A DNA stretch of 40,000 nt from Bradyrhizobium mercantei (GTDB taxonomy: Bacteria; Pseudomonadota; Alphaproteobacteria; Rhizobiales; Xanthobacteraceae): contig NZ_MKFI01000003.1 of NCBI RefSeq assembly GCF_001982635.1, forward strand, positions 921,277 to 961,276, in the 5' to 3' direction. This document shows positions 694 through 25,661 of the stretch, one piece after another (position 1 is the first letter of the stretch; each line of letters begins with the position of its first letter). The translations under genes were made by a program, and so were the position numbers. The notes beneath the pieces were generated by a model. The model was given only the letters and a program-made list of their open reading frames with translations. It made no database searches and was not told the DNA's origin.

Positions 694-969
694 TCATCTG
701 TGCCTATCACAATGAAGTGGCCAGGCACTAGTGGCCCCACCCAGCCGCATCATGCGGGCTGGGTTGAAGGAGTCCCGTAGGCAAAGCTCGGTTATGACGG
801 AAAGCAGCTCAATGCCGCTCTTGCGTAGCTCAAGGCTTTCAAAAGCGAGAGGAAAGTTGGAGTCGCTTTCAAAAGACAGGATGATGTCAGGTGAATCGTA
901 GAATCCGTTTCCCACCTGAACGGGAAATTGACCTCGTTGCGCGCGTGCAGCGTCCAGAGCGCCACGCAA
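694..969 (-). CDS. small hypothetical protein (91 aa, TTG start)
   Basis: This ORF sits between the AAA+ ATPase and the downstream ORF on the same strand. Its sequence looks plausibly globular (FPVQVGNGFYDSPDIILSFESDSNFPLAFESLELRK). I recognised no motif, and competing overlapping ORFs exist. Confidence 0.3.
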   Translation of the reverse strand: MRGALDAARAQRGQFPVQVGNGFYDSPDIILSFESDSNFPLAFESLELRKSGIELLSVITELCLRDSFNPARMMRLGGATSAWPLHCDRHR

Positions 970-1101
970 ATGCGCCGCATGCGTCGGCCGATCGCGGTCG
1001 GGCAGGCTGAATTTGGGAGAGTGTCCCCGGGGCGCGGGCGGTTTCCGCAGGAGTGTCCACTAATAGGTGCGGATAGCGCGGCATTCAAAAATGGATGTGA
1101 G

Positions 1102-2115
1102 TTATTTGGCTGGCTTCCTGTGCGCCAGAACACCTTTGCGCTCCAAAATCGCGGCAGTTAGATCCTTGCTGGTCAACTCCCGACGTTCAATCAGCGCATG
1201 CTTGATGGCGTCGCTAGCGGCGCGTGTAACGTCCGCGTAGCTCAGGCCCTTGGCCCTCTTGGCCAAAACGTCCCATTTCACAACATCTGCAATCCTTTTT
1301 GAGGTAAATTTGAAATTAAGAGCTTCAATGATCTCTTTTTCAGTAGGAAGCGAATACTCGACGATATCGTCGAACCGTCTGAAAAGAGCCCTGTCCAGAA
1401 TAGTTGGATGATTGGTCGCGGCAATGATGAGGCTGTCTGACTCATCCTGCTCGACCATTTGCAGAAAGCTGTTCACGACGCGGCGGATTTCGCCAACGTC
1501 ATTGCTGAGGCCACGCTCGGAACCAATGCTATCGAATTCGTCAAACAAGTAGACGGCGCGGGTTTGCGCGATAGCATCGAAAATCAATCGCAACTTAGCG
1601 CCGGTCTCGCCCATATAACGTGTGATAAGCCGATCAAGACGAACCACGAAGAGAGGCAGCGACAATTCACCTGCGACAGCTGACGCGGTTAAGGTCTTTC
1701 CAGTACCTGGGGGACCGACTAGCAAAAGCTTCTTACGAGGAGCTAGGCCATGCGCGCGGATGTCGCGAATTGTCTTATGTTCGCGAATGACTCTTTCCAG
1801 AATGGCTTTGGTTTTGGGACTTAGTACAAGGTCGTGCGAACGCGTGTGCGGATAAGTGACCGTTAGGAGGTCGGCTATCTCGCCACGGGGACGTCCAAGA
1901 GGAATGGGCGAAGGGCCTGGAGAGGGCACTCTTGCGCGGGATTTGTCGATAAGATCGCGCAGCTCTTCCGCGAGCTTGCCGTGTCCGCTTCGCGCCTCTC
2001 CAGCAGCGATCTGCATGGCGATCGAATGAAACTGACCGGCATCGGCCTCGGCGTATGCCTTCAAAAGCGCCCTCAGTTGGTCTGCGCTGGCCATTGGACG
2101 TGCTTTGCTGCTCAC
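1102..2115 (-). CDS. AAA+ ATPase (classic AAA family, single module)
   Basis: Walker A is LLLVGPPGTGKT and Walker B is VYLFDEFD. The second region of homology / Arg finger is IIAATNHPTILDRALFRRFD. The N-terminal domain of about 130 aa is unrecognised. Confidence 0.9.
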   Translation of the reverse strand: MSSKARPMASADQLRALLKAYAEADAGQFHSIAMQIAAGEARSGHGKLAEELRDLIDKSRARVPSPGPSPIPLGRPRGEIADLLTVTYPHTRSHDLVLSPKTKAILERVIREHKTIRDIRAHGLAPRKKLLLVGPPGTGKTLTASAVAGELSLPLFVVRLDRLITRYMGETGAKLRLIFDAIAQTRAVYLFDEFDSIGSERGLSNDVGEIRRVVNSFLQMVEQDESDSLIIAATNHPTILDRALFRRFDDIVEYSLPTEKEIIEALNFKFTSKRIADVVKWDVLAKRAKGLSYADVTRAASDAIKHALIERRELTSKDLTAAILERKGVLAHRKPAK

Positions 2116-2191
2116 TCCGCGAGTCTACCTTCAGGTTGCAGATTCTGGCGACCGCTACGAATTCGCGCACCGATAGTTTGGTGAACGAGTG

Positions 2192-2485
2192 TGGTGCGGG
2201 CGGCCGGATTCGAACCGGCACAGGCCTTGCGGCCTCACGGATTTTCGTACCACTTCGGCTTCCGCCGCCGCCCATCCGGCGTTCGTGGTCTGGACTATCC
2301 CTTCACCTTGGCGATGTCCGCTGTAGGTGCTGCCCGTCTAGTCTCTACACCTTCCCCCCGGCGGGGGCTTGGCTCGGGATTGCCAGTGAAGGTTTCCCCG
2401 ACTTTGAGCAGTTCTGCACCCAGGGTTTCCCCTAGGGCACTCAATGGCTTAAGTCCGATGCGTCTACCAGTTCCGCCACGCCCGC
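2192..2485 (-). tRNA. tRNA-Leu(UAA), class II, interrupted by a group I intron (exon 1 = 2485..2451, exon 2 = 2245..2192, CCA encoded)
   Basis: - The joined exons read GCGGGCG-TG-GCGGAACTGGTAGACGC-A-TCGGA-CTTAAAA-TCCGT-GAGGCCGCAAGGCCTGT-GCCGG-TTCGAAT-CCGGC-CGCCCGC-A-CCA.
- The acceptor stem has 7/7 base pairs.
- There is a long variable arm (GGCC-GCAA-GGCC).
- The T-loop is TTCGAAT.
- The anticodon loop is CU-UAA-AA. Confidence 0.85.
2246..2450 (-). ncRNA. group I intron (205 nt, no ORF) inserted between U34 and A35 of the tRNA-Leu anticodon
   Basis: - The intron starts AAGCCATTGAGTGCC. Its GAGU can pair with the exon end ACUU, giving the U.G wobble at the 5' splice site.
- It ends in G (GTACG|AAAA).
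- Its core strings are CTCAAAGTCGGGGAAACC, GGCAATCCCGAGCCAAGCC and GGAAGGTGTAGAGACTAGACGGG.
- From memory, these match the conserved cores of the Anabaena tRNA-Leu and Azoarcus tRNA-Ile introns. Confidence 0.8.
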
Positions 2486-2800
2486 ATCGGTGCATCTATA
2501 CGGCGCAAATGGTGTTCCGGCAAAGGGAATACACTCCGTTCCGCTCACGGAATGAGCAGCCAAGCGCAGGGTGGCGAGTTCGCCCTTGCGAATGTCGGCC
2601 ACTTCCTTCTTCGGCGCCTTCTGCTTCCGGACGTTGATGGCGCTGGCGTCCAGTACGTCCTTGAGGTGTGCGGCATAGTATTTCTCAATCATCTCGACGC
2701 TGGTCCGGCAGTTCTTGGCCAGCATGTAGATGTCGGCGCCCTCCATGAGGCGGAAACAGATGTAGGTGTGCCTCAAGCTGTAAAGGGTGCGAGGACGTCC
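2441..2800 (-). pseudogene. tyrosine recombinase / phage integrase, C-terminal fragment only
   Basis: The in-frame stretch GRPRTLYSLRHTYICFRLMEGADIYMLAKNCRTSVEMIEKYYAAHL carries the HxxR box and the catalytic Tyr region. A TGA at 2801-2803 closes the frame upstream, and no matching N-terminal or core domain follows in any frame. The 3' end of the frame runs into tRNA exon 1. Confidence 0.7.
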
Positions 2801-3243
2801 TCAGTCCCAATGCGCTGCATCGCCGAGATTGTAGGTGAGTGACTCATCCAGCCAGCGTCCGTTCCGTACCGAATAAATTCGAGCTGAGGCGATATCGGAC
2901 CCGCAATGCCTCTCCAAAAATCCGCTTAGGTGTGCTACAACTTAAAGGTATATCTTGAAGGATTGCTAGCGTCTTCGGGTTACCAACATCGTTGCGTTCA
3001 AGAGTTCTTTTTACCCTATCAGCGCGCGCACTCATCGAAGCCGTCGCGTCGCGACAAATCGCCCGTGTCGAAATGTTCCGGCCACGTGGAGAGTGTCCTT
3101 TAGCTTGGTATTTGAGACTAGGTCCGTACAGAGACTGAGCAATGCTGCCTGCTGAGCTTGTTGGTTGGAATTCGCTCAGATAGGAGGCGGTCCCGTTGGC
3201 TCACTAGCATAAGTGGAAATTTGATAGGTCTGCCACCAGTCGA

Positions 3244-5040
3244 GTGGAGGGCAAGAATTTGAGCATTTCAACTCGTCTGCGTGAATTCTCGGCGCTGTTC
3301 GTTCTTCCGGTGATCCTGATCCCCGCCTGGCTTGCGTTTGTCGCGGGTTTTTCTTTCGTCGGGCTGTTGCCGTTGGGGGTGTTGATCGTCTCGGCTATCT
3401 CCGTGTTTGCGATCCGGGCAGTCTGCCGAAGGCACAGCGGCAACGCTGTCCTCGCCGAGGTCGGATCGAAACTTACCACCTACTGCATGGTGACCGGCGC
3501 CGTTTCGGCATGTTTCCTGTTTCTGCAGATCGGCTTCTATCTTTTCTTGACGGAGTTCTCACCGCGACTGAGCACCGTGACTGCTTGGTACGATAGCCTC
3601 GAGACTGGACACATAATTGAGCGCGTGAAGTCCTTCGCTCTGAAGGCGCGCCTTGCGATCATACTCGTGCTTGGTTTCAACCTGATCTTCTTTCCGCTTA
3701 TCTCATCGAGGGTCGCTCGACTTTCGAAGATGGCATCGAAGGGTATAGACGTCGTCGGTGCCTTCTTCGTTGCGGTCCTGCTGTTCTCCTTCTACGGTTC
3801 TGCGCCTAGCGGTTTGAACGCCCTGCGGGTCGAACTTCGGTCCGCGCACGATGCTATAGACAATTCATACAGGCGAGCCGTTGCCCGCGCGTCCATCCAC
3901 TTCGCGAAGGTCATGCTGGATAGGGCGACCCTGCAGGATGACCACCTTTTCCGGACTACGCCGCCCCCGGGGGATTGGGGTGGTCCGCGACCCGCGGGCG
4001 CGCCTCCGGGACCACGACCGATGCCCCCGCCCGCCGGCTCGGGTGTTTGGGACACTGAACTCAGGGCCAGGGTCCTGAATTCCGACGAGCGGCTGAACGA
4101 GCGCATCGCGAGCAGAACGACGGCGAACGCAGCCAAGTTCGACGTACGCGGTCGGTCGGACGCGCTGAACACGCCGCCTGCGGCAAGTACGTCCAAACTG
4201 GCCGAACTCGAATCTACTCTGGAGGGACCTCGGGGAGGGGCAGCGCGGGGAGGGAGCCCTCCCGGGGACGACCTCAAACGACCAGGCGGCAGCTCATCTC
4301 AGCAGCGTGCGTTCCGAGAGATGCTCTCGACTGCGCTCGACGTTGCGAAGGTCCCCGAGGTCATCGAACCGGCAATATCCGAGCTAGTGAAGGAAACCGT
4401 CTCCGGGAACGTGATCAAAGAAATATTGACGGCGATGAGCGACGATTTGCTGGCTGACGGCATAAGAGCGGCCGCGGTCGAATTCGTCGACGACTACCTC
4501 AAGGGAGCGGTGTCGTCGGCGGACGCGAAATCTGAGCTCCGAAGAAGAGCATCCGCTTTGCTCGACACGAAATTGGGTGCGTCTTTGAAAAGTGCCTTGA
4601 GTGGGATCCGGGGATACGGATCGATGCTCTTCGACCGTATCCAAAGTCTACGCGGGGGAAACCGCGATCCGGTGATTTCCCCGCAAGAGGATGAGATGAT
4701 CGCGGAGGCCAATTCGAAGGCGTCCGGCCTTTCCGATAGCGGTGGAAGGAGCAGGATCGGCTCCGATCTAATCCAAAGATCGAGGATCGAAACCTCGAAG
4801 ATCATCGATATTCTTTCGGTGCAAGCGAAGACCGACGATTTGGCAGCGCGGTCGCTGCTGGATGTCGGATCGAACCTTTCGGACATGGAATCCAAGGCCA
4901 CGCAGTTGGGTGGGCTCGTGAGGCTGGCCCAAGAGCATGGTTACAGGGGGGAGGTCGGAGTTTGCATCGTGACACTCGAGGGCGTGGTCGTTGCGACGTT
5001 CATCTCAACTCGACAGGAATGCAAGGGCGCGAGACGATGA
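3244..5040 (+). CDS. multi-pass membrane protein with a Pro/Gly-rich linker and a soluble C-terminal region of about 300 aa; function unknown
   Basis: This is a 598-codon ORF. The N-terminal 190 aa or so contain several hydrophobic segments (FVLPVILIPAWLAFVAGFSFVGLLPLGVLIVSAISVFAI, ILVLGFNLIFFPLI, VVGAFFVAVLLFSFY). A low-complexity stretch follows (PPPGDWGGPRPAGAPPGPRPMPPPAGSG). The track start is GTG 3244; an alternative TTG at 3259 has GGAGG 8 nt upstream. Confidence 0.6.
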   Translation: MEGKNLSISTRLREFSALFVLPVILIPAWLAFVAGFSFVGLLPLGVLIVSAISVFAIRAVCRRHSGNAVLAEVGSKLTTYCMVTGAVSACFLFLQIGFYLFLTEFSPRLSTVTAWYDSLETGHIIERVKSFALKARLAIILVLGFNLIFFPLISSRVARLSKMASKGIDVVGAFFVAVLLFSFYGSAPSGLNALRVELRSAHDAIDNSYRRAVARASIHFAKVMLDRATLQDDHLFRTTPPPGDWGGPRPAGAPPGPRPMPPPAGSGVWDTELRARVLNSDERLNERIASRTTANAAKFDVRGRSDALNTPPAASTSKLAELESTLEGPRGGAARGGSPPGDDLKRPGGSSSQQRAFREMLSTALDVAKVPEVIEPAISELVKETVSGNVIKEILTAMSDDLLADGIRAAAVEFVDDYLKGAVSSADAKSELRRRASALLDTKLGASLKSALSGIRGYGSMLFDRIQSLRGGNRDPVISPQEDEMIAEANSKASGLSDSGGRSRIGSDLIQRSRIETSKIIDILSVQAKTDDLAARSLLDVGSNLSDMESKATQLGGLVRLAQEHGYRGEVGVCIVTLEGVVVATFISTRQECKGARR

Positions 5041-5334
5041 ACTCCAGCAAGACGTCCGTTCCTCCGGCGGCGTAGCTTCGACCCACACTGCAGGTGGCCC
5101 TCGCCATCCAACTCGACGTGCGCATCTGTAAGAACAGTACGCGATCACCTGCCTTTCGGCGGCAGACCACGAGGAACGGCGAGTTTTTTACTGGCAGCCG
5201 AGACGTTACGACATTACGATCGTCAGCAAGAAGCGACGCGTTCGGTCTGATATCGCCTGCCATGGCGGATAGGCATGTCTGAAACCGTGTGGGACTTTCG
5301 GCTTGATGAGACCGATTTATTCGCGGCGTCAGGC

Positions 5335-6096
5335 CTATTTCAGAGGCGGGAATGGCCGACGCGTCTCTGCAAGGATGTCCGGAACTATCGCATCGTACCG
5401 GTCGATCCTCTTTGCTTCACCCATGTCGAGGTCCGCGTTCCAGTACGGCGCAAAGCCGCCCGGAAAGTAGAACGTCGAGAAGCCGGCCGCCGCCGCAGCC
5501 AGGATGTCCCGGTCGACCTGGTCACCTACCATGAAACACCGAGCCGAGCCGACGCCCCGCTTGAGGTCGAGATATGCTTGCGAAGTCTTGCGCACCGAGA
5601 CGACCTCGCCAATCAGGTGTTCGAGGCCGTGTCCGGAAACGAACCTGCGGCACCTTTCGGTCTTCTCTTCGGTCACGATCGTGACCGGTACTCCGGCTTT
5701 CGAGATGGCGATGAGTCCTTCGCGAACGCCCGTCCGCAGCGCCGGAAGGCGCTGGATGGCTTCCAGGAAGCGGGATTGAGCCGACTCGAAGAGGTCGTCC
5801 GGCCGGACCTCCGGTCCGGAGATTAGTGCGACCGTTTCTTCTACGTCGCGCCCCTGAAGCACCATCGAGAGTCCTTGCGCGAGCAACGCCGCCGGATAGC
5901 GCAGATGATCCGGATGCGTCGCCGCGATCTTCTGGTCCAAGTCCCGCAAAAACGCCAATCCTTGATCCTCGTCCTGCGGTGCGTTACGACCGGTGAGCCG
6001 CTCGATCTGCCGCAGCATGTCCAATTGCGCGGCCGCGAATACCCGGTCCGTATCCCAGAGTGTATTGTCGGCGTCCGTGAAGAGATGCGCCTTCAA
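5335..6096 (-). CDS. HAD-superfamily hydrolase
   Basis: Motif I is FTDADNTLWD (DxDxT) and motif IV is MVGDQVDRD. The start lies 4 nt after the stop of the upstream 3-TM gene, so it is the last gene of the long minus-strand cluster. Confidence 0.8.
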   Translation of the reverse strand: MKAHLFTDADNTLWDTDRVFAAAQLDMLRQIERLTGRNAPQDEDQGLAFLRDLDQKIAATHPDHLRYPAALLAQGLSMVLQGRDVEETVALISGPEVRPDDLFESAQSRFLEAIQRLPALRTGVREGLIAISKAGVPVTIVTEEKTERCRRFVSGHGLEHLIGEVVSVRKTSQAYLDLKRGVGSARCFMVGDQVDRDILAAAAAGFSTFYFPGGFAPYWNADLDMGEAKRIDRYDAIVPDILAETRRPFPPLK

Positions 6097-6100
6097 CGGG

Positions 6101-6883
6101 TCATCCCCCTTTCTTGCCCGGGGCCGGAACGGGCGCCGGCGGAGTCGCGGTCGGCGTGGTGGGAGACGACAACTTGGCTGCTACGCCGGCGTTCGAAGAT
6201 TTCACCAGAATCACGTTGGCGCCGGATAGGGAAAAGAAGATCAACAGCACCCACATCGCGGCCTGCAGCATACCGACGCCCGGAGTTAGCAGCCGGAGCT
6301 TGTCCGCCACTTTTTCGGCGACGAGATAGGATTCCGCGATGTAACACTTGGCGTAGTATGCCTTAAGATCTGCTCCTTCTTTGGTGCCGAGAGCGATGAA
6401 AGCTTCGCCCCAGGTGGGAGCAGTCACGTCCAGGATGCCTTTATAGAAGAGCATGGACGTTGGTCGGTGGGGCTTAGATCCGGCTTTCCAGGTCTTGGGT
6501 ATTCTAAATCGCGGCTTGACCGCCCTGAGGATAATCAATACGGAGCCCGTCACCAACAGGACGTAGGCGAAGAAAGCGGCGTATGTCGCTATGGTCAGCG
6601 CCGAAAACGGATCGGTGCCGAACGCGCCGAAACCGGGCCAGGGATAGTCTGTCGCGAACCTGGTGAAGACGGCGGCGACAACGGCGCTCAAGAACGCCAC
6701 GATCGTCAGCAGACGCGAGGCTTTACCGTCCTCGTATTCGGTCAGCGCCTTCACTTCCGCGAGACTGGCCTTTGCACCGTCGTGAACGTGATTGAGCGCG
6801 TCCGTCGGAATTGACCACCCGTCGAGCTTGACCAATAGTTCCGCGAAGCCCGTATCGCTGGGAGGCCTGCTGATGCCAAACAT
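6101..6883 (-). CDS. three-TM membrane protein with a Pro/Thr-rich C-terminal tail; function unknown (topology resembles small TM effector proteins)
   Basis: The hydrophobic segments are LLTIVAFLSAVVAAVFTRF, LTIATYAAFFAYVLLVTGSVLIIL and MLQAAMWVLLIFFSLSGANVILV. An N-terminal amphipathic helix ends in YEDGKASRLL. The tail reads SSPTTPTATPPAPVPAPGKKGG. The start is 6 nt downstream of queC. Confidence 0.7.
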   Translation of the reverse strand: MFGISRPPSDTGFAELLVKLDGWSIPTDALNHVHDGAKASLAEVKALTEYEDGKASRLLTIVAFLSAVVAAVFTRFATDYPWPGFGAFGTDPFSALTIATYAAFFAYVLLVTGSVLIILRAVKPRFRIPKTWKAGSKPHRPTSMLFYKGILDVTAPTWGEAFIALGTKEGADLKAYYAKCYIAESYLVAEKVADKLRLLTPGVGMLQAAMWVLLIFFSLSGANVILVKSSNAGVAAKLSSPTTPTATPPAPVPAPGKKGG

Positions 6884-6889
6884 ACCGAA

Positions 6890-7606
6890 TCACCCGCTTT
6901 GCAGATCAACTGCTTCCCCCATATATCGCCGCCATCCTTCGCGCCGCAACCCGCAGGCATCGCATTTGCCGCAGCCGAAGCCCCAATCGTGACGGACGCT
7001 CCGGTCGCCCAGGTAGCAGGTATGAGTCTTGTCGAGGATCAATTCGACGAATGAGCGCCCTCCTAACTTCTCGGCAAGCCTCCATGTCGCGGCTTTGTCG
7101 ATCCACATCAGCGGCGTCTGCAGTACAAGACGTGCCTCCATGCCGAGATTGATAGCGACTTGAAGCGCCTTCACAGTATCGTCCCTGCAATCGGGGTAAC
7201 CCGAGAAATCCGTCTCGCAGACGCCTGTGACGACGTGTTTGAGGCCGCGCTGATGGGCGACGATCGCCGCGAAGGTTAGGAACACCAGATTGCGGCCGGG
7301 AACGAAAGTGGAGGGAAGACCGTCCGGCCGTTTCGAAAGCGGCAGATCTGCAGTCAGAGCGCTGGTACTCACCTGTCCGAGAACGGCCAGGTCGATGACG
7401 TGATCACGCCCGAGCCTGGCTTCCCAGCGCCGGTCGATGCCGGCAATGCCGGATCTCACCGCGTCGCGACAATCCATTTCGATCGCGTGACGCTGACCGT
7501 ATCCGAATCCGATCGTCTCTACATGATCGTAGCGGGACAGCGCCCACGCGAGGCACGTCGTCGAGTCTTGGCCGCCCGAGAAGAGAACGATTGCGGATTG
7601 CGTCAT
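6890..7606 (-). CDS. queC: 7-cyano-7-deazaguanine (preQ0) synthase
   Basis: The PP-loop is [10 protein letters not shown]. The C-terminal Zn-cysteine cluster is CYLG...[11 protein letters not shown]. At 238 aa the length is typical. Confidence 0.95.
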
Positions 7607-7633
7607 TGCGATCTCCAGGAATGAATGCCGAAT

Positions 7634-7996
7634 TCAGCGAGGGGGTCCGTCGTATTCCGCCCAGCAATCGGTGGTCTCGTAGACCCTTACGCTGAAGAGT
7701 TGCGCCAGTTGCGGCTTGATCCTGTCCCAGATCCAGATCGCGATGTTTTCCGCGGTGGGATTTTCCAGTCCCGGAACGTCGTTCAGGCAGTGGTGGTCGA
7801 GCGCCTTGAGAAGGGGGCCGAACGCCGCCTCCATGTCGAAAAAATCCACCACGAAGCCGGTATGCGGATCGACCGGCCCGTCCAATACGACCTCGATGCG
7901 ATAGGAATGACCGTGCATCCGATGGCAACGGTGTGTCTGCGGGACGCTGGGAAGCCGGTGCGCGGCTTCGAACTTGAATGCCTGGGATATCTTCAT
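7634..7996 (-). CDS. queD: 6-carboxy-5,6,7,8-tetrahydropterin synthase
   Basis: The N-terminus MKISQAFKFEAAHRLP and the CHRMHGHSY metal/catalytic motif are both present. I trimmed the start to ATG 7996, which forms an ATGA overlap with the queE stop; this gives 120 aa, typical for QueD. The track ORF begins 42 nt further upstream. Confidence 0.9.
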   Translation of the reverse strand: MKISQAFKFEAAHRLPSVPQTHRCHRMHGHSYRIEVVLDGPVDPHTGFVVDFFDMEAAFGPLLKALDHHCLNDVPGLENPTAENIAIWIWDRIKPQLAQLFSVRVYETTDCWAEYDGPPR

Positions 7997-8628
7997 CGGA
8001 TGCCAAGATGCTTGTGGGTTTGAACGCTGAGACGCCACTTCGGATTGTTCAGGCAGTACGCGACAGCCTGCCGCGTGTGGTCGACCACGTCGGGGCCGTC
8101 CATCGGTTGAAGCAGAAAATTATCGAAGCCCATCCTCTCGAACCGTTCAGGCGGGGCTAGCGTCTGCGGGTACACGAGTTTGAGTTCGTGTCCTCGGGTG
8201 ATCGCGAGTTCGGCATTCGATTTTGGGCTGACGCAGATCCAATCGATGCCGGCAGGGGCCGGCAGCGTTCCATTCGTCTCGATCGCGATACGGAAGCCGA
8301 AGCCGTGCAGCGCCCGCACGACTTCGTCGTCAACCTGCAGCAGGGGCTCTCCCCCGGTGAGGACGCAGAGACGATGAGCTTCGCCGGCGGTCCATTCGGA
8401 GACGATCGCCTCGGCGAGGCTTTGTGCGTCGCGATACCGGCCTCCCTTCGTGCCGTCGGTTCCGACGAAATCCGTATCGCAGAAACGACAGACCGCCTCG
8501 TGCCGATCCTGTTCGCGTCCCGACCACAGATTGCAGCCGGCGAACCGGCAGAACACCGCGGGGCGCCCGGCCTGTATTCCCTCGCCCTGCAGCGTCAGAA
8601 AAATCTCCTTGACCGCGTAGGAGCCCAT
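7993..8628 (-). CDS. queE: 7-carboxy-7-deazaguanine synthase (radical SAM)
   Basis: The N-terminus is EIFLTLQGEGIQAGRPAVFCRFAGC. A CX14CX2C cluster motif (C-NLWSGREQDRHEAV-C-RF-C-DTDF) is present, as in Burkholderia-type QueE. Confidence 0.9.
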   Translation of the reverse strand: MGSYAVKEIFLTLQGEGIQAGRPAVFCRFAGCNLWSGREQDRHEAVCRFCDTDFVGTDGTKGGRYRDAQSLAEAIVSEWTAGEAHRLCVLTGGEPLLQVDDEVVRALHGFGFRIAIETNGTLPAPAGIDWICVSPKSNAELAITRGHELKLVYPQTLAPPERFERMGFDNFLLQPMDGPDVVDHTRQAVAYCLNNPKWRLSVQTHKHLGIR

Positions 8629-8641
8629 ATCCCTACCGCCC

Positions 8642-9679
8642 TCAATTGGCGCGCCGGATGAGGCGCACGAGATAGTGCGACACCAGCCGATAGTCGGCCT
8701 TCGTGTTCTGAAGGGCGTGCCACAAACGCTTTTCGGTGCCGAAATTCCACTCGCCGCTGGACCAATGGGTCTTGCCGACCAGACACTTCAGGCCGTTCTC
8801 GAATTGTCGTTGCGATTTCGCCTTGTTCCTGATGGCAAGTTCGTCCATCGCGTAGCCCAGGGAGATCAGACCGACGCCGTGCACAAGACGCGACGTCTTC
8901 GGCGTATGATCTTTCCAATCCTTAGCGAAGATGTGCTGCACCGCGCCGAAGAAATTGCTGACGAGTTCGACGCCCTCGGACATCAGTTCTCCGTTGCTTT
9001 CGAAGCCGCGAAGCGCGCCCTGCTGCAGCGAATTCATCAAAAGCCGCTGCAGAAGGGTGTCCTTGATGATGCCCTCAGGATGGGTCTGTTGGTTGATCTG
9101 GCCGCGAAGCGACGAATCCGGATCGTAGTTGAGGCGTTCCGTCAACAATGCGGCGCCGGCGCGATCGGACAAACGGTGCGGCAGTCCGTCCAGCCCCGGC
9201 AGCAGTTCGTAGATAAGAGGCTTGGCGATCGGCCGCGTATTGTTGACCAGAATGAATTGACGGTTGAGTTCTGCCATGTCGTCGCAGAGGAACGAAGAGA
9301 CGAGAAATTCGAATTTCCGCTCCGGCAAGCTCAGCGCCGCGCAGAGACGTTGCTGGCCGTCGACCACCCACCCCGGAGGCCCGCCGGAAGTGTCGACCAC
9401 AAAACCGCCGTCGCGTGTGGCCGAGGCTCCCTTGGCGAACGCGAGCACGATCGCGTTGGGCAGCATCGCATCGTCCTGCCCCAAATAATCGCTTATCTCC
9501 CTGATATGGGACGCGATCTGCGGCCGCTGAAATCCGTTCAGACGACCTTTCGCATCGCGGCCGATCCGCTCGATGCGAGCGATCTTCGTGATCTCCTGCG
9601 GGGTCGCGGAGAAGCAGATGACCCGAGGGCCCTTGCCCTGGCGCGGTGAAATCGTCGGCTCGAAACGTACTTTAGTCAT
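8642..9679 (-). CDS. DGQHR-domain (DndB/DpdB-like, ParB-nuclease-fold) protein, paralog 1
   Basis: The motifs are GFQRPQIASHIREISDYL, LPNAIVLAF, WVVDGQQR and RQFILVNNTRP. The start ATG 9679 overlaps the stop of the upstream TGT-like gene (ATGA). Confidence 0.85.
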   Translation of the reverse strand: MTKVRFEPTISPRQGKGPRVICFSATPQEITKIARIERIGRDAKGRLNGFQRPQIASHIREISDYLGQDDAMLPNAIVLAFAKGASATRDGGFVVDTSGGPPGWVVDGQQRLCAALSLPERKFEFLVSSFLCDDMAELNRQFILVNNTRPIAKPLIYELLPGLDGLPHRLSDRAGAALLTERLNYDPDSSLRGQINQQTHPEGIIKDTLLQRLLMNSLQQGALRGFESNGELMSEGVELVSNFFGAVQHIFAKDWKDHTPKTSRLVHGVGLISLGYAMDELAIRNKAKSQRQFENGLKCLVGKTHWSSGEWNFGTEKRLWHALQNTKADYRLVSHYLVRLIRRAN

Positions 9680-10962
9680 CGTTCTCTTTTCCGGACTTGT
9701 TTGCCGTCCGCCGTCAGGTGCGCGTAGAAGACGTGCAGGTTGTGGATGCCGCGTCTCTTGTTGCGATTGGACGAACGGAAGATTAATGCCTCCACGCCGG
9801 CGTCGCGACAGACGCGGCAGCGACAGCGCTCCCAGGGCCGATCGCCCAGCGTTTTCAGATAGGCCGTTCGCAATTCGGCGAGCCTCGCCTCGTTGCGTGC
9901 GTCGCTCGCGCGCTCGTCCCAGAGGGCGTATCGGCCGTACTCGATGACAGCATCCACCGCGGATTCGACCTTCATCCTTCGGGAGGCGAACTTGCGAACG
10001 CCTTCCAGCGCGCGCGTCTCAAGCCGGAGCAGATTTTCTTGGTCGAGACGCCCCCTGCGGGCACTTCTCAGCAGCCTGTCGTTGTCGATCGCCTGGGGGA
10101 TCCGGACCGCCGTGTAATAGGCGAGTTCGCCGCTCTTCCCCAAGGCATAGTAATTGCGCTTGCCGTCCTTGAAGGCGCGCAGCAACGGCGACGTGGTGTC
10201 GAAGCTTGCAACGCCGTATTTCCTCACAGCTGCGAGGTGCTCGGTCTTGCCGAAGCCGAGAAGGTGCAGCTTGATGCTTCTTGGCAGAGACTCGCGGATC
10301 GTCGCCAACGCCTTCTCGATCTGCTCGATGCGCAACGGTACCATGCCGCCGACGGCGAGATAGCCGTAACCCATCTTGGCGAGCGCGGTCGCACAGTCGG
10401 CCATGCTGCGCGCAGACCAGCCCTGAATGACGCCGACTGGAGTGAACTTCCTGCCCAAAGCCTTCGATGCCGGCAGAAATCGGCGCGCGTTCTCGATCGT
10501 GATGTCCACGCGCCGCTTCGCCTCGGCTGAAGGCTTCATCCCGTCCTCAAGGAAATCGAAAACCAGATGGTCGATCGAGCAGCCGTGCGTGAAGCCGCCG
10601 TCCTCGTAGAATTCGAGTGTGTCATGGATTTTATAGGGCGGATCCTTCCGGTCTCGATACGTGAAGGCGCCGTTGTCCCCCATCACCATGCTGCCGGGAT
10701 ATTTGGAAAGCGGGTAGCGGAGAAATTCGCGCGCTCCTTCCCTGCGGAAGCGCATCGCCTGCGCCTCCGAATACTTGCCGGTCACGGTAGCGTCCCCGAC
10801 GATCGCTCGGGAGACCAGCAGACCATCGTAGGGTGGGGTGTCCAGGTGCTCGTGCGGGAAGTCGTCGTCGGCATGCGCGCGCCGCCGCTTCGCCGCGCGG
10901 TCCGCGACGAAGTCGAACTCCGGGTCAACGAAATCAAGGCTATCGGAATACAAGAACTTCAT
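9676..10962 (-). CDS. DpdA-like TGT-fold transglycosylase (candidate DNA-guanine:preQ0 transglycosylase)
   Basis: - I trimmed the ORF to MKFLYSDSLDF (ATG 10962, an ATGA overlap with the upstream stop).
- The TGT-like elements are MGDNGAF (catalytic Asp region), YLAVGGMVP and LHLLGFG.
- The Zn site is CRCRVC (CxCxxC) followed by IHNLH.
- The 604-aa track version has an Arg-rich N-terminus lying inside the neighbouring gene; I judge it spurious. Confidence 0.85.
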   Translation of the reverse strand: MKFLYSDSLDFVDPEFDFVADRAAKRRRAHADDDFPHEHLDTPPYDGLLVSRAIVGDATVTGKYSEAQAMRFRREGAREFLRYPLSKYPGSMVMGDNGAFTYRDRKDPPYKIHDTLEFYEDGGFTHGCSIDHLVFDFLEDGMKPSAEAKRRVDITIENARRFLPASKALGRKFTPVGVIQGWSARSMADCATALAKMGYGYLAVGGMVPLRIEQIEKALATIRESLPRSIKLHLLGFGKTEHLAAVRKYGVASFDTTSPLLRAFKDGKRNYYALGKSGELAYYTAVRIPQAIDNDRLLRSARRGRLDQENLLRLETRALEGVRKFASRRMKVESAVDAVIEYGRYALWDERASDARNEARLAELRTAYLKTLGDRPWERCRCRVCRDAGVEALIFRSSNRNKRRGIHNLHVFYAHLTADGKQVRKRER

Positions 10963-12074
10963 GCCGCCGAAGCCCTTGAGACGTCTCGCTCGAGTTGGAT
11001 CAGGTAGTTGGAGAGCAGACGTTGGTCCTTGGGTGTCGATTGGAGGTCGTTCCAATCGCGGTTCAGCGCCTCCCATCTTCCTTCGGTCCAGCGGCAATAG
11101 GGAGCGAGGCGCGTGAGCACCGACCTCACCGCCGAAGGGTCGCCGCCGAAATTGCCGTAACGCGTCATGATCTGATCCATGAGGACGCCCATCGCAGTGA
11201 TGCCGGCGGCATGCATGAGCCTGCTTCGGTCTGGCGGAAGACCCCAAGCGCCGGGGAACGCGTCCCGAACCGCCGACCAGAAGGAGACGAGGAGCCGATA
11301 CATCGCGTCGGTATCGGCGGTCCCGTCGGTGTCGACGTGCGCGGCAAGCGCGCCGCGTGGATCCTGCAAGCTGCGGCGCATGAGATTGGTCAGGGTCGAA
11401 TCGGTAACGACGGCCAAAGGGGACGAATGGGATGGTCTCTTGACGAGTTGATAGAAGGGAGAGTTCGGCGTATCGGCAAGTGCGGCGCACAGTATGCTCG
11501 GGACCCGGCGCGCGGAGAGATCGCGCGGAAGGACGGTCCCCACCGTCGGCAACAGTTCGTCGATGAGGCGCTTGTCGAGGGGGCGCGCCTTGTTCACGAG
11601 AATGAATTGCTCGCGGTGAACCGCTATGTCACTTGAGACGAACGCGATGACCGGCACCGGAAGATTTGACCCGCCAGATTCGGCGAGTGCCAGCGCGCGC
11701 TGCTGTCCGTCCACGATCCAGGCAGACTTCCTTCCCGGTCTCACCGGAATCGAGAGCACGCCGGCGTCGCCGGCGCCATCGACGGTCTCGTTCTTCGTGC
11801 CCCTCTTTTGATTGAACTTGGCGCCGGCGATCGCGAGAATCACGGCATTCGGAAACAGGACGTCGCCGCCGGCCAGATATTCGGCTATCGCCTTGACATG
11901 GGCGCGGATCTCGGGCCGCTGGAAACCCTCGATCTGACTGTCCGTGGACTGCTTGATCCGGGCGATCTCGGCGATTTCGAGTATCCGCGATCCGGGAACG
12001 AAGAACGCGAAGACCTCGGTGCCGCCTTGGCGGGTCCTGATGGCGTGCACGTTCACGCATGGGATAGCCTTCAT
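10959..12074 (-). CDS. DGQHR-domain (DndB/DpdB-like) protein, paralog 2
   Basis: I trimmed the ORF to MKAIPCVNVH (ATG 12074, an ATGA overlap with the upstream stop). The motifs are GFQRPEIRAHVKAIAEYL, FPNAVILAI, WIVDGQQR and EQFILVNKARP. The protein is collinear with paralog 1 along its whole length. Confidence 0.85.
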   Translation of the reverse strand: MKAIPCVNVHAIRTRQGGTEVFAFFVPGSRILEIAEIARIKQSTDSQIEGFQRPEIRAHVKAIAEYLAGGDVLFPNAVILAIAGAKFNQKRGTKNETVDGAGDAGVLSIPVRPGRKSAWIVDGQQRALALAESGGSNLPVPVIAFVSSDIAVHREQFILVNKARPLDKRLIDELLPTVGTVLPRDLSARRVPSILCAALADTPNSPFYQLVKRPSHSSPLAVVTDSTLTNLMRRSLQDPRGALAAHVDTDGTADTDAMYRLLVSFWSAVRDAFPGAWGLPPDRSRLMHAAGITAMGVLMDQIMTRYGNFGGDPSAVRSVLTRLAPYCRWTEGRWEALNRDWNDLQSTPKDQRLLSNYLIQLERDVSRASAA

Positions 12075-13036
12075 GAGAGCCCTCGCCGCACGTCGTTGTA
12101 GATCCGAGAGAACCGACCCTGTTCGCAGGACACCCCTTCGACATTCCTTAGATGTCTGAGGACCATGTTCGACGTGGGTCCGACCTTCGGCATCAGGCGG
12201 GTGACCATCCTTCTGATCTCGTCGTCGGAAACCCTCTTCTGGACCCGCGGTCGGCGAAAGGCGACAGGGGCGAGGCGCGCCGCGACGGCCTTCCTGTCGG
12301 TCTCGAGCGTCCCGTCGGATCGCGGCGAAATGTTCGTCACAAAATCGAGAAGCGCGCGCTGGGGAAAGTCGACCCGCGTTCCTGGGCGCCCGAGCCTGTC
12401 CAACCGTTCGTCGTACGGCATCACGTATGGCTTGAGGGCGTGGCACAGATGATTGCTGATGGACAGCCCGAACAATCTGAGCTGAACACCCTCCATTCGG
12501 GAAACGGCTATCAACTCCTTCTCGATCATCGCGGCGTAGGCGCGCGAAAGGCACACCAGAACTTGCGAGCAGCCCTTCGCGTCTTTCGCCAGAGTTGAGG
12601 AGAAAGGTCCCTTCGAGACGTGGGTCCACCATCGCGCGGCGCTCACTTCGCCCTTGATCTTGCGGAGGACGGAGGCCGGCCCGACCGGCCGGATCGTCAG
12701 ATCGTAGCCCGGAATCGGGGTTTCGCTCTTCACGTAACCCAGTCCCGCGGAAAGAACGGCAAATCTTCCCGAAACGTGCTCCGCGGCCTTGCGGGCCATC
12801 TGGAACGCCCGCCCCTTATAGAGATCGGCCGCCGGCTGGAGTTGGGTCTCCCTCTTCAGCCGTCCGATCCAGGCATCTGCGGTCTGCTCGAGCGTCCCGC
12901 GCGGCAACGATCTGACGGAAAGCGCGCGCGTGCATCGCTTTCCTGCCGAACAGGTCGTCACGACCAGCGTCGGTTTTCGGAGGCGGTTGATCGTTTTCGT
13001 ACGAGAAACTGCCATTCTTTCTGCGACCGTAGCCAC
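12071..13036 (-). CDS. hypothetical protein (321 aa) with a conserved-looking N-terminal module and a basic, HTH-like C-terminal region
   Basis: The codon pattern is good. The stop is translationally coupled (ATGA) to DGQHR paralog 2. The motifs are LVVTTCSAGKR, AADLYKGRAFQ and FAVLSAGLGYV..IPGYDLTI. These resemble the YaaA/DUF6884-type pattern (CSxxK ... LY.G..F ... ILSA.yGl ... PYD) as I recall it; this has not been verified. Confidence 0.65.
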   Translation of the reverse strand: MATVAERMAVSRTKTINRLRKPTLVVTTCSAGKRCTRALSVRSLPRGTLEQTADAWIGRLKRETQLQPAADLYKGRAFQMARKAAEHVSGRFAVLSAGLGYVKSETPIPGYDLTIRPVGPASVLRKIKGEVSAARWWTHVSKGPFSSTLAKDAKGCSQVLVCLSRAYAAMIEKELIAVSRMEGVQLRLFGLSISNHLCHALKPYVMPYDERLDRLGRPGTRVDFPQRALLDFVTNISPRSDGTLETDRKAVAARLAPVAFRRPRVQKRVSDDEIRRMVTRLMPKVGPTSNMVLRHLRNVEGVSCEQGRFSRIYNDVRRGLS

Positions 13037-13099
13037 TCTTTACTGCAAGGACGGGGAAAGCCAAAAAGCACGGATGGAGTTGGCGAATTCCCCAACGCC

Positions 13100-13137
13100 C
13101 CCTTAGCTAATCCGACAAGCAACGCGCGCTGTCAAGC
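13100..13137 (-). promoter_or_regulatory. candidate internal promoter ahead of the modification genes
   Basis: This lies in the 170-nt gap between the nuclease stop (13207) and the next start (13036). The minus strand reads CTTGACA-gcgcgcgttgcttgtcgg-ATTAGCTAAG. The -35 hexamer is perfect; the -10 is only weak. Confidence 0.25.
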
Positions 13138-13206
13138 TCCGGTTGTGCAGTTTCTTGAGCCTTCCCGAAGAAATGCTCTGCAGTTATCACCACGCTTTCG
13201 CGGGGA

Positions 13207-14400
13207 TCACGGGACTTGGGGCAGTCGGTTGCGGCCCGTCGCGTCTGGACAATGATATTTGAAGTCGCAAGCCGTGCAGGTCCGTTGTTCCGGCTGTGTG
13301 GGCCAGGGCGCACGGGTCGATCCCTGCGTGATCTCGGCCTGGACCGCCACTTCGATGTCTCCGACGACCCTGTCGAACCGACCGGTTGCCTCGTCGAGGG
13401 AGGCGGGCGTGACCTCGACAAGCCGAAAGCTCCGATCCTCGAGAAAGAGCTTACTGAGGCCGCGCGTCTGGCCGGTCTCGAGTTCTTCGCCTTCCTGCTC
13501 CGGGCTTTCGCGTTCGCCCAGGAGGAATGCGCGATCGGCCTGGGCCGGCATGACATCGGTCGTGCGCCCTCTCACATCGCTCCGCAGATCGCGAAGGTCG
13601 GTCTGCGAGGGATAGAGTTCGTTCAGGTATAGAAGTACGCCCGCGATCACCCTCGCGTCGGGATTTTGCCGATGCCGTAGCCACGCATAAGTCTGTATCT
13701 GCCACGCCTGGTGGAGCCACGTGTCGCTCCCCACGCTTGGAGGGCGCCTCATGCCCTTGTAGTCCACTATGATCTCGAAGGGGGCATCGCTCCGTTCCAT
13801 CTCGGCGCGTACCACCGGGCTTTGGCGAAGACGGTGAAGAATGGCGTTGCTCGGAGGTGCGCGATGGAGTTGAACCGAACTCAAGACATCGACTATTCCC
13901 GTGACAGAGTAGCGTACGGCCCGCATCTGCGCATTGGGCGGCAACTCCCTGGATCCCATCAGGCGCAGTTCCGCTTCGGCGACGAGCGGAAAGAGATGGA
14001 CGCCCCACGTGTTCAAGGCCGCTTCCGCCCGGCGACTTGCGATGCCTCGGCCGTTCTCTGTCGGATTATCATAGTCGAGATACAGAAGGCGCGGCGGAGG
14101 ACGCAGCCCCCGCGACAGCAGCCTGCGATAGACCGTCTCCTCGATCGGGCGGATGTGCGTCGCCCACGTCCAAGGCCAACCGCCGTTCCAGGGGGCTCCG
14201 CCGGCCCGCCACCGCGCAAACGCCTCCTCCATCAGGCCGTGAATGAATTCGCCGAACCACTGTTGAACCGGGACGGAAGGAGGCAAGCCCGCCTTGTTGT
14301 ATAGACGATACTGGCGTCCACATTTTAAGAACGCCAGCAAGTCGCCCGTGAGGCTGTACTCGGGGATGATGCGCTCGACGCCGTGCGGACGGATGCTCAT
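13207..14400 (-). CDS. PD-(D/E)XK nuclease of the RecB/AddB/Cas4 type with a predicted 4-Cys Fe-S cluster
   Basis: One N-terminal Cys (AFLKCGRQY) plus the C-terminal CTACDFKYHC gives the C...CxxCx5C arrangement. The nuclease motifs are TGIVDVL, EIIVDYKG (D/ExK) and QIQTYAWL (QxxxY). The start is 6 nt after the helicase stop. Confidence 0.8.
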   Translation of the reverse strand: MSIRPHGVERIIPEYSLTGDLLAFLKCGRQYRLYNKAGLPPSVPVQQWFGEFIHGLMEEAFARWRAGGAPWNGGWPWTWATHIRPIEETVYRRLLSRGLRPPPRLLYLDYDNPTENGRGIASRRAEAALNTWGVHLFPLVAEAELRLMGSRELPPNAQMRAVRYSVTGIVDVLSSVQLHRAPPSNAILHRLRQSPVVRAEMERSDAPFEIIVDYKGMRRPPSVGSDTWLHQAWQIQTYAWLRHRQNPDARVIAGVLLYLNELYPSQTDLRDLRSDVRGRTTDVMPAQADRAFLLGERESPEQEGEELETGQTRGLSKLFLEDRSFRLVEVTPASLDEATGRFDRVVGDIEVAVQAEITQGSTRAPWPTQPEQRTCTACDFKYHCPDATGRNRLPQVP

Positions 14401-14406
14401 CGATGA

Positions 14407-17130: not shown

Positions 17131-17734
17131 TAAAGCCTGCGATTACAGACGACCCGAGTCTGCCCTGCGCATGATCGCGTTCGGCGATCCCGCGAGGAGA
17201 AGTGCGCGCTGAAGACCAAGATCCGGCACGCCCTCAAGGCCGCCGAGGTGCGGGAGGGAGGGCGTCTTACAGCCTGCGAGGTTCCGATAGTTTGGTGATA
17301 TGCGAATACAATAATCATGTGCTGCGCATCACGTTAGGGCGACAGGCGGACGCGCCAGGTCGAGCGAAATGTCCGAGAAGCGTGCGTCCTGGATCGTCCA
17401 CCACTCGATCAGCAATCGGATGCGGACCGTGTTCGGCACATTGCTTTCGCATGACCGTAGGCTCGCGCACACTCTGATCGGACACGTCGCAGAGCGATGG
17501 ACCAGATAGTGGCGGAGTGACAGCCCGGTCTTCACGAGATCGATGATGTCGTTCGTGCTTGCCTTGCCGCCTTATTCGTCGTGTCCGTCGCGATGGCGTT
17601 GGGCACGAGTGATGACGAATTCGTCAAAATCGGACCCACTCTTAACCCACCCGAACTGGTAGTGTCCCGTAAATCGCTAGTGCCGTAGCAGTGCTAAGGG
17701 ACCTGACGCATCACAATAGGACCAAGACGCGGCA

Positions 17735-19831: not shown

Positions 19832-20167
19832 GAAGCGGTTGCCAAGCTACTCTCCGTTCGCTCGGTGAGGATCCTGTGCTGTCGCGCAGCTGCTCAAATA
19901 TTTCACTTGCAAAATTTGCAGCATCGGGCTCGAGAATGCTGCTCAGGTCGGAGCGTAACTTCATCCGGACGAAATACTCAGAGGTCACCTTGAGCCGTTT
20001 TGCTGGTTGCAAACTGACTCCTCTTTTGATGTGTCCGTCTATGACGCTTTCTGAGACGCTCTCTGTTGCGACCTTTGGGAGCAAGTGGTCGGTCGCGTCG
20101 GCGTTGTCTGCCCTGTCCGTCGCCTGACTCCTTGCTTGCGCGGTCTTCCGTCTGGCCCGAAGTTACG

Positions 20168-20198
20168 TTCCATATGCATTCACTATGCTTCCATATGC
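20168..20198 (+). promoter_or_regulatory. candidate operator: two TTCCATATGC copies spaced 21 bp start to start, with nested palindromes
   Basis: TTCCATATGC occurs at 20168-20177 and again at 20189-20198. CATATG, ATGCAT and GCAT-N5-ATGC dyads lie in between. The site is in an AT-richer stretch about 230 nt upstream of the first T3SS gene. Confidence 0.25.
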
Positions 20199-20426
20199 GA
20201 ACGGTATTTCCACTCGATCGTGCCGCGGACTAGAACCGTTGAAGCAGCTAATCCTGAGCGGCGGCCTGCTGGAAGGCAGAGCTTTATCCGAATGCTGATG
20301 ACGCGCTCAGCGGCATCAGAAGTGGTGGCCAAAACACCCCGCAGCAGGTGCAACTCTTCGGTGAAAGCCTTATTGCATTCTGGCGGATGAGGCGGGCTTA
20401 AAGCGGTGTAAGGACTATTCGTCGTT

Positions 20427-20849
20427 ATGTCTGATTTGGTCCCGTTTGCCGCGCCGGAAAGCCGACGCCGCCTTCTGCGGTGCCTGACCGAGATTGCGTT
20501 TCTGGCCTGTCTTAAAAGCGACGTGGAGCGAGCGAGGCGGATTGCCAAGGGAATTGGTGTGGTTGCTCCAGGCGGTCGGGAGGCCGTCATCGCTTGCGTG
20601 CTCGTCGATCTATTGGCAGGTGACGTTGAAGCAGCGCTGGAGCGCCTCGATCCTCTTGCCCGCGCGAATGATCCCTATGGAATGGCATTTCAGGCGCTGG
20701 TGCTTGAGATTGTTGGCCGCTTAAGCGAGCGGGATGCTGTGCTTCGGCGTCTTCCTCGCGGCGATCTGGCGCTCGACGGGCTTTTTGCGGCACTAGGTGG
20801 TGCAGCGAAGGTACATACAGGAGGTTCAGTCAATGAGCGGTGTGAATGA
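20427..20849 (+). CDS. T3SS-associated helical-repeat protein, YscG/PscG-like needle co-chaperone candidate
   Basis: This 140-aa protein is the first gene of the T3SS operon. Its all-helical, TPR-like pattern (LLRCLTEIAFLACL...EAVIACVLVDLLAGDVEAALERLDPLA...PYGMAFQALVLEIVG) resembles YscG as I recall it. Confidence 0.4.
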   Translation: MSDLVPFAAPESRRRLLRCLTEIAFLACLKSDVERARRIAKGIGVVAPGGREAVIACVLVDLLAGDVEAALERLDPLARANDPYGMAFQALVLEIVGRLSERDAVLRRLPRGDLALDGLFAALGGAAKVHTGGSVNERCE

Positions 20850-21264: not shown

Positions 21265-21284
21265 ACAACCGTGATGCGAGCGTG

Positions 21285-22046: not shown

Positions 22047-22050
22047 ATCG

Positions 22051-25590: not shown

Positions 25591-25622
25591 TCGTCAGCTG
25601 CGTGTCGCACCTCTGGCTATGG
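25591..25622 (+). promoter_or_regulatory. weak tts-box-like element upstream of sctV
   Basis: TCGTCAGCTGCGTGTCGCACCTCTGGCTATGG shares the TCGTCAGCT head of the rhizobial TtsI-dependent tts box as I recall it. The remainder matches poorly. It lies 40-70 nt before the sctV start. Confidence 0.2.
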
Positions 25623-25661
25623 ACTGGCATTTCACGGGGCAAGTCGCGCTAGGCTGATCAT

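Follow-up and report, generated by a model that had tools for sequence, protein, structure and literature searches.

A probably self-splicing tRNA-Leu(UAA) gene in the relic of an integrative defence island of Bradyrhizobium mercantei

The 40,000-nt stretch of the Bradyrhizobium mercantei genome analysed here (contig NZ_MKFI01000003.1, positions 921,277 to 961,276; hereafter the window) contains a tRNA-Leu(UAA) gene with a 205-nt insert in its anticodon loop, located between an integrase remnant and a gene for an AAA+ ATPase. This locus raises the question of whether the insert is an intron that can still be removed, and whether the gene belongs to the host or to a mobile element. It is very probable, in our view, that this is an intact-looking, self-splicing tRNA-Leu(UAA), which was the second gene of an integrative defence island and survives as part of a 2.0-kb relic.

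The gene occupies 294 nt of the minus strand, and its loop is split between U34 and A35. The following features were assigned (coordinates are those of the window):

2485..2451, minus strand: exon 1, 35 nt, comprising the 5′ strand of the acceptor, the D arm, the 5′ strand of the anticodon stem and C32-U33-U34, with U2451 as the −1 U
2450..2246, minus strand: group I intron, 205 nt, without an open reading frame (ORF)
2245..2192, minus strand: exon 2, 54 nt, comprising A35-A36, the 3′ strand of the anticodon stem, the long variable arm, the T arm, the 3′ strand of the acceptor, A73 and CCA
2495..2523, minus strand: promoter-like motif identified by direct reading, TTGCCG (2523-2518), a 17-nt spacer and TATAGA (2500-2495)
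2532..2554, minus strand: terminator-like hairpin, located past the integrase remnant and ahead of the promoter-like motif

Exon 1 has the sequence GCGGGCGTGGCGGAACTGGTAGACGCATCGGACTT and exon 2 the sequence AAAATCCGTG...CGCCCGCACCA, while the intron starts with AAGCCATTGAGTG and ends with GTGGTACG. ARAGORN in its default mode detected no tRNA in the raw window. It recognized the joined exons as a tRNA-Leu(taa) of 89 nt with seven Watson-Crick acceptor pairs, A73, an encoded CCA and a long variable arm whose stem has 4 bp; a U.U mismatch is present at 27-43, the uppermost pair of the anticodon stem. Removal of the insert thus leaves a class II tRNA-Leu(UAA) with a cloverleaf, a long variable arm, the anticodon UAA, A73 and an intact acceptor. 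An original prediction, made from the letters of the window, had proposed the same coordinates, exon and intron lengths and anticodon, as well as a tRNA call on the joined exons as a check, and ARAGORN confirmed them; the strand, which had not been stated, is minus. The same prediction had called the joined tRNA perfect, which is a slight overstatement in view of the U.U mismatch. With the option -i, ARAGORN returned a tRNA-Ser(aga) with the intron misplaced by 1-2 nt, and this call was not accepted. For homologous loci, all U/G splice combinations were therefore enumerated and those yielding a full-length tRNA were kept. The promoter-like motif lies 9 nt ahead of tRNA position 1 and matches 8 of 12 consensus positions, which is under the scanner threshold. 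Homologous loci have CTTGGC-N17-CTATA at the equivalent position, and 2495..2523 is a candidate promoter of the tRNA gene. No second copy of either tRNA half was found within the window.

The original prediction had also proposed that the insert be scanned with the Rfam model Intron_gpI (RF00028). A permissive Rfam scan of positions 2000-2700 matched the full model at 2460..2277 on the minus strand with 46.3 bits and an E value of 1.4e-10. A secondary structure with the helices P1-P9 was drawn by hand:

2454-2449/2444-2439, minus strand: P1, ACUU-AA / UUGAGU, with the U2451.G2442 wobble
2436-2419, minus strand: P2, with a GAAA loop
2411-2406/2335-2330, minus strand: P3, CUGCUC / GGGCAG
2401-2349, minus strand: P4-P6, with P4 UCGGGG / UCCCGA, a short P5, P6 and P6a
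2345-2339/2297-2292, minus strand: P7, G.GACUA / UAGUCC
2329-2304, minus strand: P8
2289-2249, minus strand: P9 three-way domain, ACCAC / GUGGU, with a GGAA loop
2246, minus strand: omega G, the last intron base

This structure was tested on 47 homologues filtered to less than ~86% identity. With the P3/P7 pseudoknot included, 95.6% of the cells were paired, compared to 29-45% when the 3′ partners were slid by 1-3 columns, and compensatory (two-sided) changes were present at 36 of the 62 pairs (14-23 when slid). None of 500 shuffles matched any of the observed pairing measures. No variation was seen across the alignment at the −1 U, at its G partner or at the omega G, and covariation supports P2, P3, P5, P6a, P8, P9a, P9b and the last pair of P7. 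P4, P6 and P7 vary hardly at all, partly because the pattern used for the retrieval of homologues fixed parts of J6/7, P7 and P9. P7 and the joining segments (J3/4 AAA, J4/5 AAA and J8/7) are present at the sequence level. In the window copy, all helices are paired except for the third pair of P5, and the GNRA loops are kept; an energy-only fold of this copy recovers P2, P3, P6a, P8 and the entire P9 domain (z = −2.78). A chance match is excluded by the E value of 1.4e-10 together with the covariation in homologues. Its fold and conserved core identify the insert as a group I intron, and the core is of the IC3 type found in bacterial tRNA introns. Several elements had been read directly from the sequence in the original prediction, and they hold up: the insert contains the core strings GGGAAACC, GCAATCCCGAGCCAAGCC and GGAAGGTGTAGAGACTAGACGGG, pairing of U2451 with G2442 is possible in the ACUUAA/UUGAGU hairpin, the insert ends with G2246, and the core, whose foldability had been named as decisive, folds with covariation over the 47 homologues.

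In the splicing pathway expected from the group I mechanism, the primary transcript would fold into P1-P9, and an external guanosine would attack 3′ of U2451, held in the U.G wobble of P1. The terminal G2246 would then take the guanosine site of P7, and the released exon 1 would attack after G2246. The first two A residues of exon 2 would displace the first two A residues of the intron opposite U2443/U2444 (P10), and the ligated product would be pre-tRNA-Leu(UAA). We infer that the intron is catalytic and self-splicing, that the gene is expressed and that the copy in the island provides the working tRNA-Leu(UAA).

The cyanobacterial/plastid tRNA-Leu(UAA) intron, the classical form of the class Leu.3Ug, has the same host gene, the same insertion site (CUU/intron/AAAA) and the same core strings as the window intron, in agreement with the parallel drawn in the original prediction. 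Further features common to the window, cyanobacterial/plastid and Leu.3Ug introns are a U.G wobble formed by the −1 U and an omega G. Compared to the cyanobacterial seed Sel1, the window intron has a short P5 and P6 and a G+C-rich sequence, and its P9 is the ACCAC/GUGGU three-way domain common to proteobacterial tRNA-Arg introns (Rur1.Arg.5Ug). The intron of the Azoarcus pre-tRNA-Ile(CAU) is 205 nt long, equal to the window intron. It shares with the latter the P7/J6-7 string GUGUAGAGACUAGACGG, the P7 3′ strand UAGUCC, the P2 GAAA loop and the lack of an ORF, and its J8/7 (AAGGCA) is one base apart from that of the window (AAGGGA). The two introns are ~70% identical. In contrast to the window intron, which follows nt 34, the Azoarcus intron is inserted after nt 36 of another tRNA, its P5-P5a is long and its P9 consists of one hairpin. 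Self-splicing of the Azoarcus intron has been shown experimentally, whereas that of the window intron is predicted. The Azoarcus intron belongs to subgroup IC3 (Williams 2020 preprint).

The window intron shows 80-86% identity to the preprint seed Ncf2.Leu.3Ug, 72-83% to the alphaproteobacterial tRNA-Arg seed Rur1.Arg.5Ug, ~70% to the Azoarcus seed and 63-74% to the cyanobacterial Leu seed Sel1. A scan of species-representative genomes (one genome per species) listed 120 loci, of which 104 have the same intron type in tRNA-Leu(UAA) at nt 34/35 with introns of 200-314 nt, corresponding to at least 104 species. Among the matches listed, most are from Alphaproteobacteria (B. lablabi, Tardiphaga, Rhizobium, Mesorhizobium, Hoeflea, Caulobacter, Sphingomonas, Paracoccus), and others are from Acidobacteria, Bacteroidota, Bdellovibrionales, Planctomycetes and some Gammaproteobacteria. 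A gamma-proteobacterial tRNA-Leu(UAA) intron has reportedly been described earlier. The window pre-tRNA is ~95% identical to the B. lablabi copy, and all matches of the window in a megablast search against plasmid records were from Bradyrhizobium, in line with the rhizobium-like genome recognized originally. In a survey of 5,292 tRNA genes split by group I introns, Leu.3Ug, the setting seen here, is one of the four classical bacterial classes (Williams 2020 preprint). The original prediction had considered a proteobacterial tRNA-Leu(UAA) intron phylogenetically interesting. This rarity argument fails, because at least 104 species carry the intron type and the preprint seed is 80-86% identical. 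The tRNA-Leu(UAA) intron found here is not phylogenetically unusual and is a further member of an abundant, already surveyed class.

The setting of the gene is more informative. It is flanked in the window by three gene remnants or genes, which together with it form one block:

2564..2800, minus strand: tyrosine-integrase remnant, the last 79 codons, including the RHTY...Y catalytic region
1102..2115, minus strand: IetA-type AAA+ ATPase, 337 aa (PADLOC IetA, E 3.9e-73; Pfam AAA; tblastn)
788..1084, minus strand: truncated ietS (S8 protease) pseudogene, 65 in-frame codons followed by a stop
788..2801, minus strand: whole relic, 2,025 aligned bases, 88% identical to positions 11008-13030 of locus L124, an intact island

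The integrase remnant and the 426-aa integrase of B. lablabi (L017) share 94% identity. This full-length relative produced weak Pfam matches below the cut-offs (Phage_integrase 21.2 versus 27.1 bits, SAM-like domain 20.6 versus 22.3 bits). IetA is the first cargo gene past the tRNA and shares 94.7% identity with IetA of L124; its match to NCBIfam IteA (195.5 bits) is far short of the equivalog cut-off of 510. The block comprises the integrase 3′ end, the tRNA-Leu with its intron, ietA and the start of ietS. Since 788-2801 aligns to L124 as a block, with homology breaking at both ends (at 788 on the ietS side), the window contains a 2.0-kb relic of the left end of an island. The original prediction had placed the gene exactly at an island junction, with an integrase remnant on one side and an AAA+/HEPN-like cassette on the other. 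The integrase remnant is indeed there and adjoins the tRNA gene, but the alignment to L124 places the gene inside the relic. The AAA+ protein is IetA, but the second gene is the truncated ietS, and no HEPN-like protein was found near the tRNA in Pfam/PADLOC-type searches of the neighbouring genes.

What the complete element looks like is evident from its relatives. Integrase homologues are located 55-175 nt upstream of the intron-bearing tRNA-Leu and co-oriented with it in at least 21 loci from several orders and Acidobacteria, and the integrase family includes at least 6,800 proteins at E <= 1e-20. Intact islands were examined in 21-kb contexts from B. diazoefficiens-like and Afipia genomes (L124-126, L130-135). 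Their order is invariably housekeeping genes, the 5′ half of a tRNA-Leu(UAA) gene, integrase, intron-bearing tRNA and defence cargo, the latter varying between IetAS, Abi, type III restriction-modification, Eco29kI with Vsr, and Gabija. All 17 displaced 5′ halves examined carry the full CTTAAAA loop and 0-3 more bases of an intronless gene before they diverge. One Afipia element is joined to two different left flanks, and the only sequence common to both is the 15-nt AAGGGACTTAAAATC, which places the crossover in the anticodon stem-loop. This core consists of the anticodon-stem 5′ arm and the loop, and contains the intron insertion site T34/A35. A metagenome scan with the core AAGGGACTTAAAATC followed by CCCT revealed an intact intronless tRNA-Leu(UAA) gene in 114 of the 120 loci listed. 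One metagenomic locus, L242, whose intronless gene is intact, represents an empty site: on the left it is 88.8% identical to the flank of B. lablabi L017 up to tRNA nt 42, and on the right it corresponds to the sequence that follows the islands in L054 and L046. A gene for an FAD-dependent oxidoreductase (Pfam FAD_binding_3) flanks the native tRNA-Leu in L124, L046 and L242.

Both ends of an island are visible in L046, a small and decayed one. The oxidoreductase gene is followed there by the native 5′ half, 2 kb of cargo, the tRNA-Leu with its intron, a ParDE toxin-antitoxin pair, the last 26 nt of the native tRNA and the native right flank, and the native tRNA-Leu is not rebuilt. At the junction beside the integrase (attL), the native tRNA is not rebuilt in any case, and the far junction (attR), visible only in the decayed island of L046, has just the last 26 nt of the native gene. 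Of 91 species-representative loci whose upstream sequence extends over at least 600 nt, 24 have a displaced 5′ half, in two spacing classes: ~1.4-1.6 kb with the integrase between, and ~30-190 nt with no gene between. Insertion inside a same-isotype host tRNA gene with a short common core (15 nt) is thus seen in the relatives and not in the window.

We also considered that the intron-bearing gene might be a hybrid of an element exon 1 with a native intron and exon 2. This was rejected on the evidence from Acidobacteria, because the acidobacterial 5′ half has the acceptor GCCCGGA, while the two exons pair mutually (GCGGGCG/CGCCCGC). The acceptor argument fails for Bradyrhizobium, where the native gene has a natural A5.C68 mismatch.

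Other junctions of these elements differ from the general order. In Afipia (L127 16237-16334, L128 6427-6524), a type III restriction-modification module is enclosed by a 99-nt direct repeat, which consists of the last 45 nt of the intron and exon 2 and is located 4.6 kb downstream of the tRNA gene with the intron. It follows that a second insertion made use of the 3′ part of that gene, and the repeat includes intron sequence. In L136-L140 (9841-9875), an acidobacterial integrase with 65% identity to the Bradyrhizobium one is found behind a displaced 5′ half of tRNA-Leu(CAA), GGGACTCAAAATC, and Rfam detected no tRNA or intron after the integrase; it is a sister lineage with a different target and without a replacement gene beside the integrase. 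On the minus strand of a 1,619-nt metagenome contig (L207), non-tRNA sequence is joined at position 498 to GAAGACGCAAGGGACTTAAAATCCCT and an intact 3′ half of tRNA-Leu, the sole candidate among the 120 matches listed for a right junction without rebuilding of the tRNA.

The closest described analogue of this island context is tRNA-dependent lysogeny, which also involves a tyrosine integrase, a short core inside a host tRNA gene and a tRNA that is not rebuilt at the junction seen. It was proven experimentally for actinobacteriophages with intronless tRNAs (Guerrero-Bustamante and Hatfull 2024, PMC10865867). In contrast, the elements described here are defence islands of Alphaproteobacteria and Acidobacteria, their tRNA is split by a group I intron, and their right junction is visible only in the decayed L046 island. 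Islander-type islands (Hudson et al. 2015, PMC4383910) share the tyrosine integrase, the tRNA target and a displaced tRNA fragment at the island end. Classical islands restore the 3′ part of the target, so that one end has the intact gene and the opposite end a 3′ fragment, whereas here the displaced piece beside the integrase is the 5′ half and a separate complete gene follows the integrase.

Related genes were also found on plasmids. The plasmid pCTX-M3 (L001, NC_004464.2) has at 4995-5311 a complete tRNA-Leu(UAA) gene with a 213-nt group I intron of the same family, and genes of this type adjoin tmrB and aac(3)-IId on resistance plasmids. The window pre-tRNA matches more than 1,200 plasmid records at ~75% identity (Escherichia, Klebsiella, Salmonella, Acinetobacter and other genera), and the pCTX-M3 copy is present at 99% identity or higher in 636 of 5,426 complete E. 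coli genomes (~12%). No annotated feature lies beneath the E. coli matches (H51-H58) and the other matches listed, apart from one Acinetobacter match annotated as a hypothetical protein. The pCTX-M3 exons are near-identical to genes of a Bradyrhizobiaceae chromosome (L012), Mesorhizobium (L111) and a Novosphingobium metagenome-assembled genome (L014). Decayed copies were identified in B. elkanii pUSDA76 (L003, 4555-5261), where an integrase N-terminus (aa 16-176) is fused to intron nt 1, and in Bradyrhizobium sp. LMTR 3 (L113, 5293-5539), where the copy begins at about intron nt 17. The pUSDA76 copy, which lacks exon 1, was considered as a remnant of an att crossover; this was rejected, as the integrase N-terminus is fused directly onto it, making it a decayed deletion derivative.

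The remainder of the window is, by its sequence matches, accessory plasmid-like Bradyrhizobium DNA. A Dpd cluster (7-deazaguanine DNA modification) extends over 5335-16812 on the minus strand, upstream of the tRNA, with genes for a HAD hydrolase, a PycTM-like membrane protein, QueC, QueD, QueE, DpdB, DpdA, a second DpdB, DpdC, a PD-(D/E)XK nuclease and a UvrD-type helicase; its part 5370-11972 matches a plasmid of Bradyrhizobium sp. 41S5 at 81%. A type III secretion cluster (SctV, SctN, SctJ, SctU and others) at 20000-40000 is ~93% identical to B. japonicum and B. septentrionale plasmids. The exact 15-nt direct repeat TCACCAAACTATCGG is found at 2170-2184, 8 nt beyond the tRNA 3′ end, and at 17284-17298, near the far end of the Dpd cluster. 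With a BLAST E value of ~0.01, it may be due to chance or may be an old att-like scar.

The picture implied by the original prediction, in which the intron-bearing gene is the vertically inherited housekeeping tRNA-Leu(UAA) of the host and separate islands landed alongside, appears improbable. In its favour, islands classically insert into tRNA genes, L046 and L127/L128 have secondary insertions at the 3′ end of the gene with the intron, and about three quarters of the homologous loci have no displaced 5′ half within 2.5 kb, so that the intron may reside in the native gene in many lineages. However, the integrase end, tRNA, ietA and ietS start form a single 88%-identical block in the window and L124, L017 and L124 have the native 5′ half upstream of the integrase, an empty site with an intronless gene exists, and the rest of the window is plasmid-like DNA with the Dpd system and the type III secretion cluster. 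The best supported reading is that the gene was brought in as the island's own tRNA-Leu(UAA) and is not a chromosomal housekeeping gene at an island edge. Several observations weigh against this reading and against an active intron. The window has neither a displaced 5′ half nor an attR, and the integrase is not intact; the integrase is truncated, ietS is broken, the element is dead in the window, and its tRNA could be a passenger that is not under selection. In all intact island loci, the cargo exceeds the 10-kb flank, with the right end beyond view. The invariance of those parts of J6/7, P7 and P9 that were fixed by the retrieval pattern carries no weight. The Intron_gpI match, in spite of its E value and full-model extent, has 46.3 bits and falls below the Rfam gathering threshold of 50 bits, at which no match was returned in the window. 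This score reflects the model, because the clear relatives L001, L002 and L017 likewise lack an Intron_gpI call at this threshold and the Rfam seeds of the family include no bacterial sequence (Williams 2020 preprint).

An alternative is that the insert no longer splices and that the locus is a tRNA pseudogene inside a dead island fragment. The degraded surroundings (an integrase of 79 codons and a truncated ietS) would fit this, as would the decayed relatives on pUSDA76, with a C in place of the omega G and a disrupted T stem, and in LMTR 3, where the copy is 5′-truncated. The window copy, however, retains the U.G wobble, the omega G, the helices, GNRA loops, acceptor, A73, CCA and the promoter-like motif, and its differences from active-looking relatives are mainly compensated or located in loops, making a pseudogene unlikely. 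A further possibility, which we regard as doubtful, is that the island gene has its intron for a reason: the intron splits the 15-nt anticodon stem-loop core on which the integrase acts, so that the replacement tRNA-Leu(UAA) of the island is no attB, and yet its RNA matures by self-splicing. In support of this, the intron insertion site falls within the deduced core AAGGGACTTAAAATC, each of the 17 displaced halves examined derives from an intronless gene, the association recurs in two architectures and several phyla, and disruption of a host tRNA with a same-isotype replacement is an established phage strategy. This evidence is, however, purely positional and associative. The cyanobacterial/plastid intron uses the same site, and therefore the site was inherited and did not evolve for shielding; the related integrase with 65% identity targets tRNA-Leu(CAA) without an adjoining tRNA gene; and if attR restores the native gene, a replacement is needless. 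Literature searches found nothing connecting group I introns with protection from integrases, in a limited literature set that does not prove novelty. It is tentatively suggested that widespread integrase-borne defence islands (Alphaproteobacteria, Acidobacteria, Bdellovibrionales) target intronless tRNA-Leu(UAA) genes and carry their own copy, with the intron perhaps acting as a shield at the DNA level. If this is true, the replacement gene would be invisible to the integrase and would still yield a working tRNA, and hitch-hiking would explain the spread of an endonuclease-less intron across phyla and onto resistance plasmids.

Standard tools such as default ARAGORN and Rfam at the curated threshold miss genes of this kind, as do the annotations deposited for related copies in RefSeq and PLSDB, and genomes therefore appear to lack or under-count tRNA-Leu(UAA). 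As an intron alone, the one described here adds little, and the parts most worth attention are the island association and the unannotated E. coli copies. The E. coli copy beside an aminoglycoside-resistance module would be an easy experimental system for splicing and function, and the island context suggests a testable role for the intron in shielding its gene from site-specific recombination. The relatives of this mobile island would extend the strategy of disrupting a host tRNA and bringing a replacement from actinobacteriophages to defence islands of soil bacteria.

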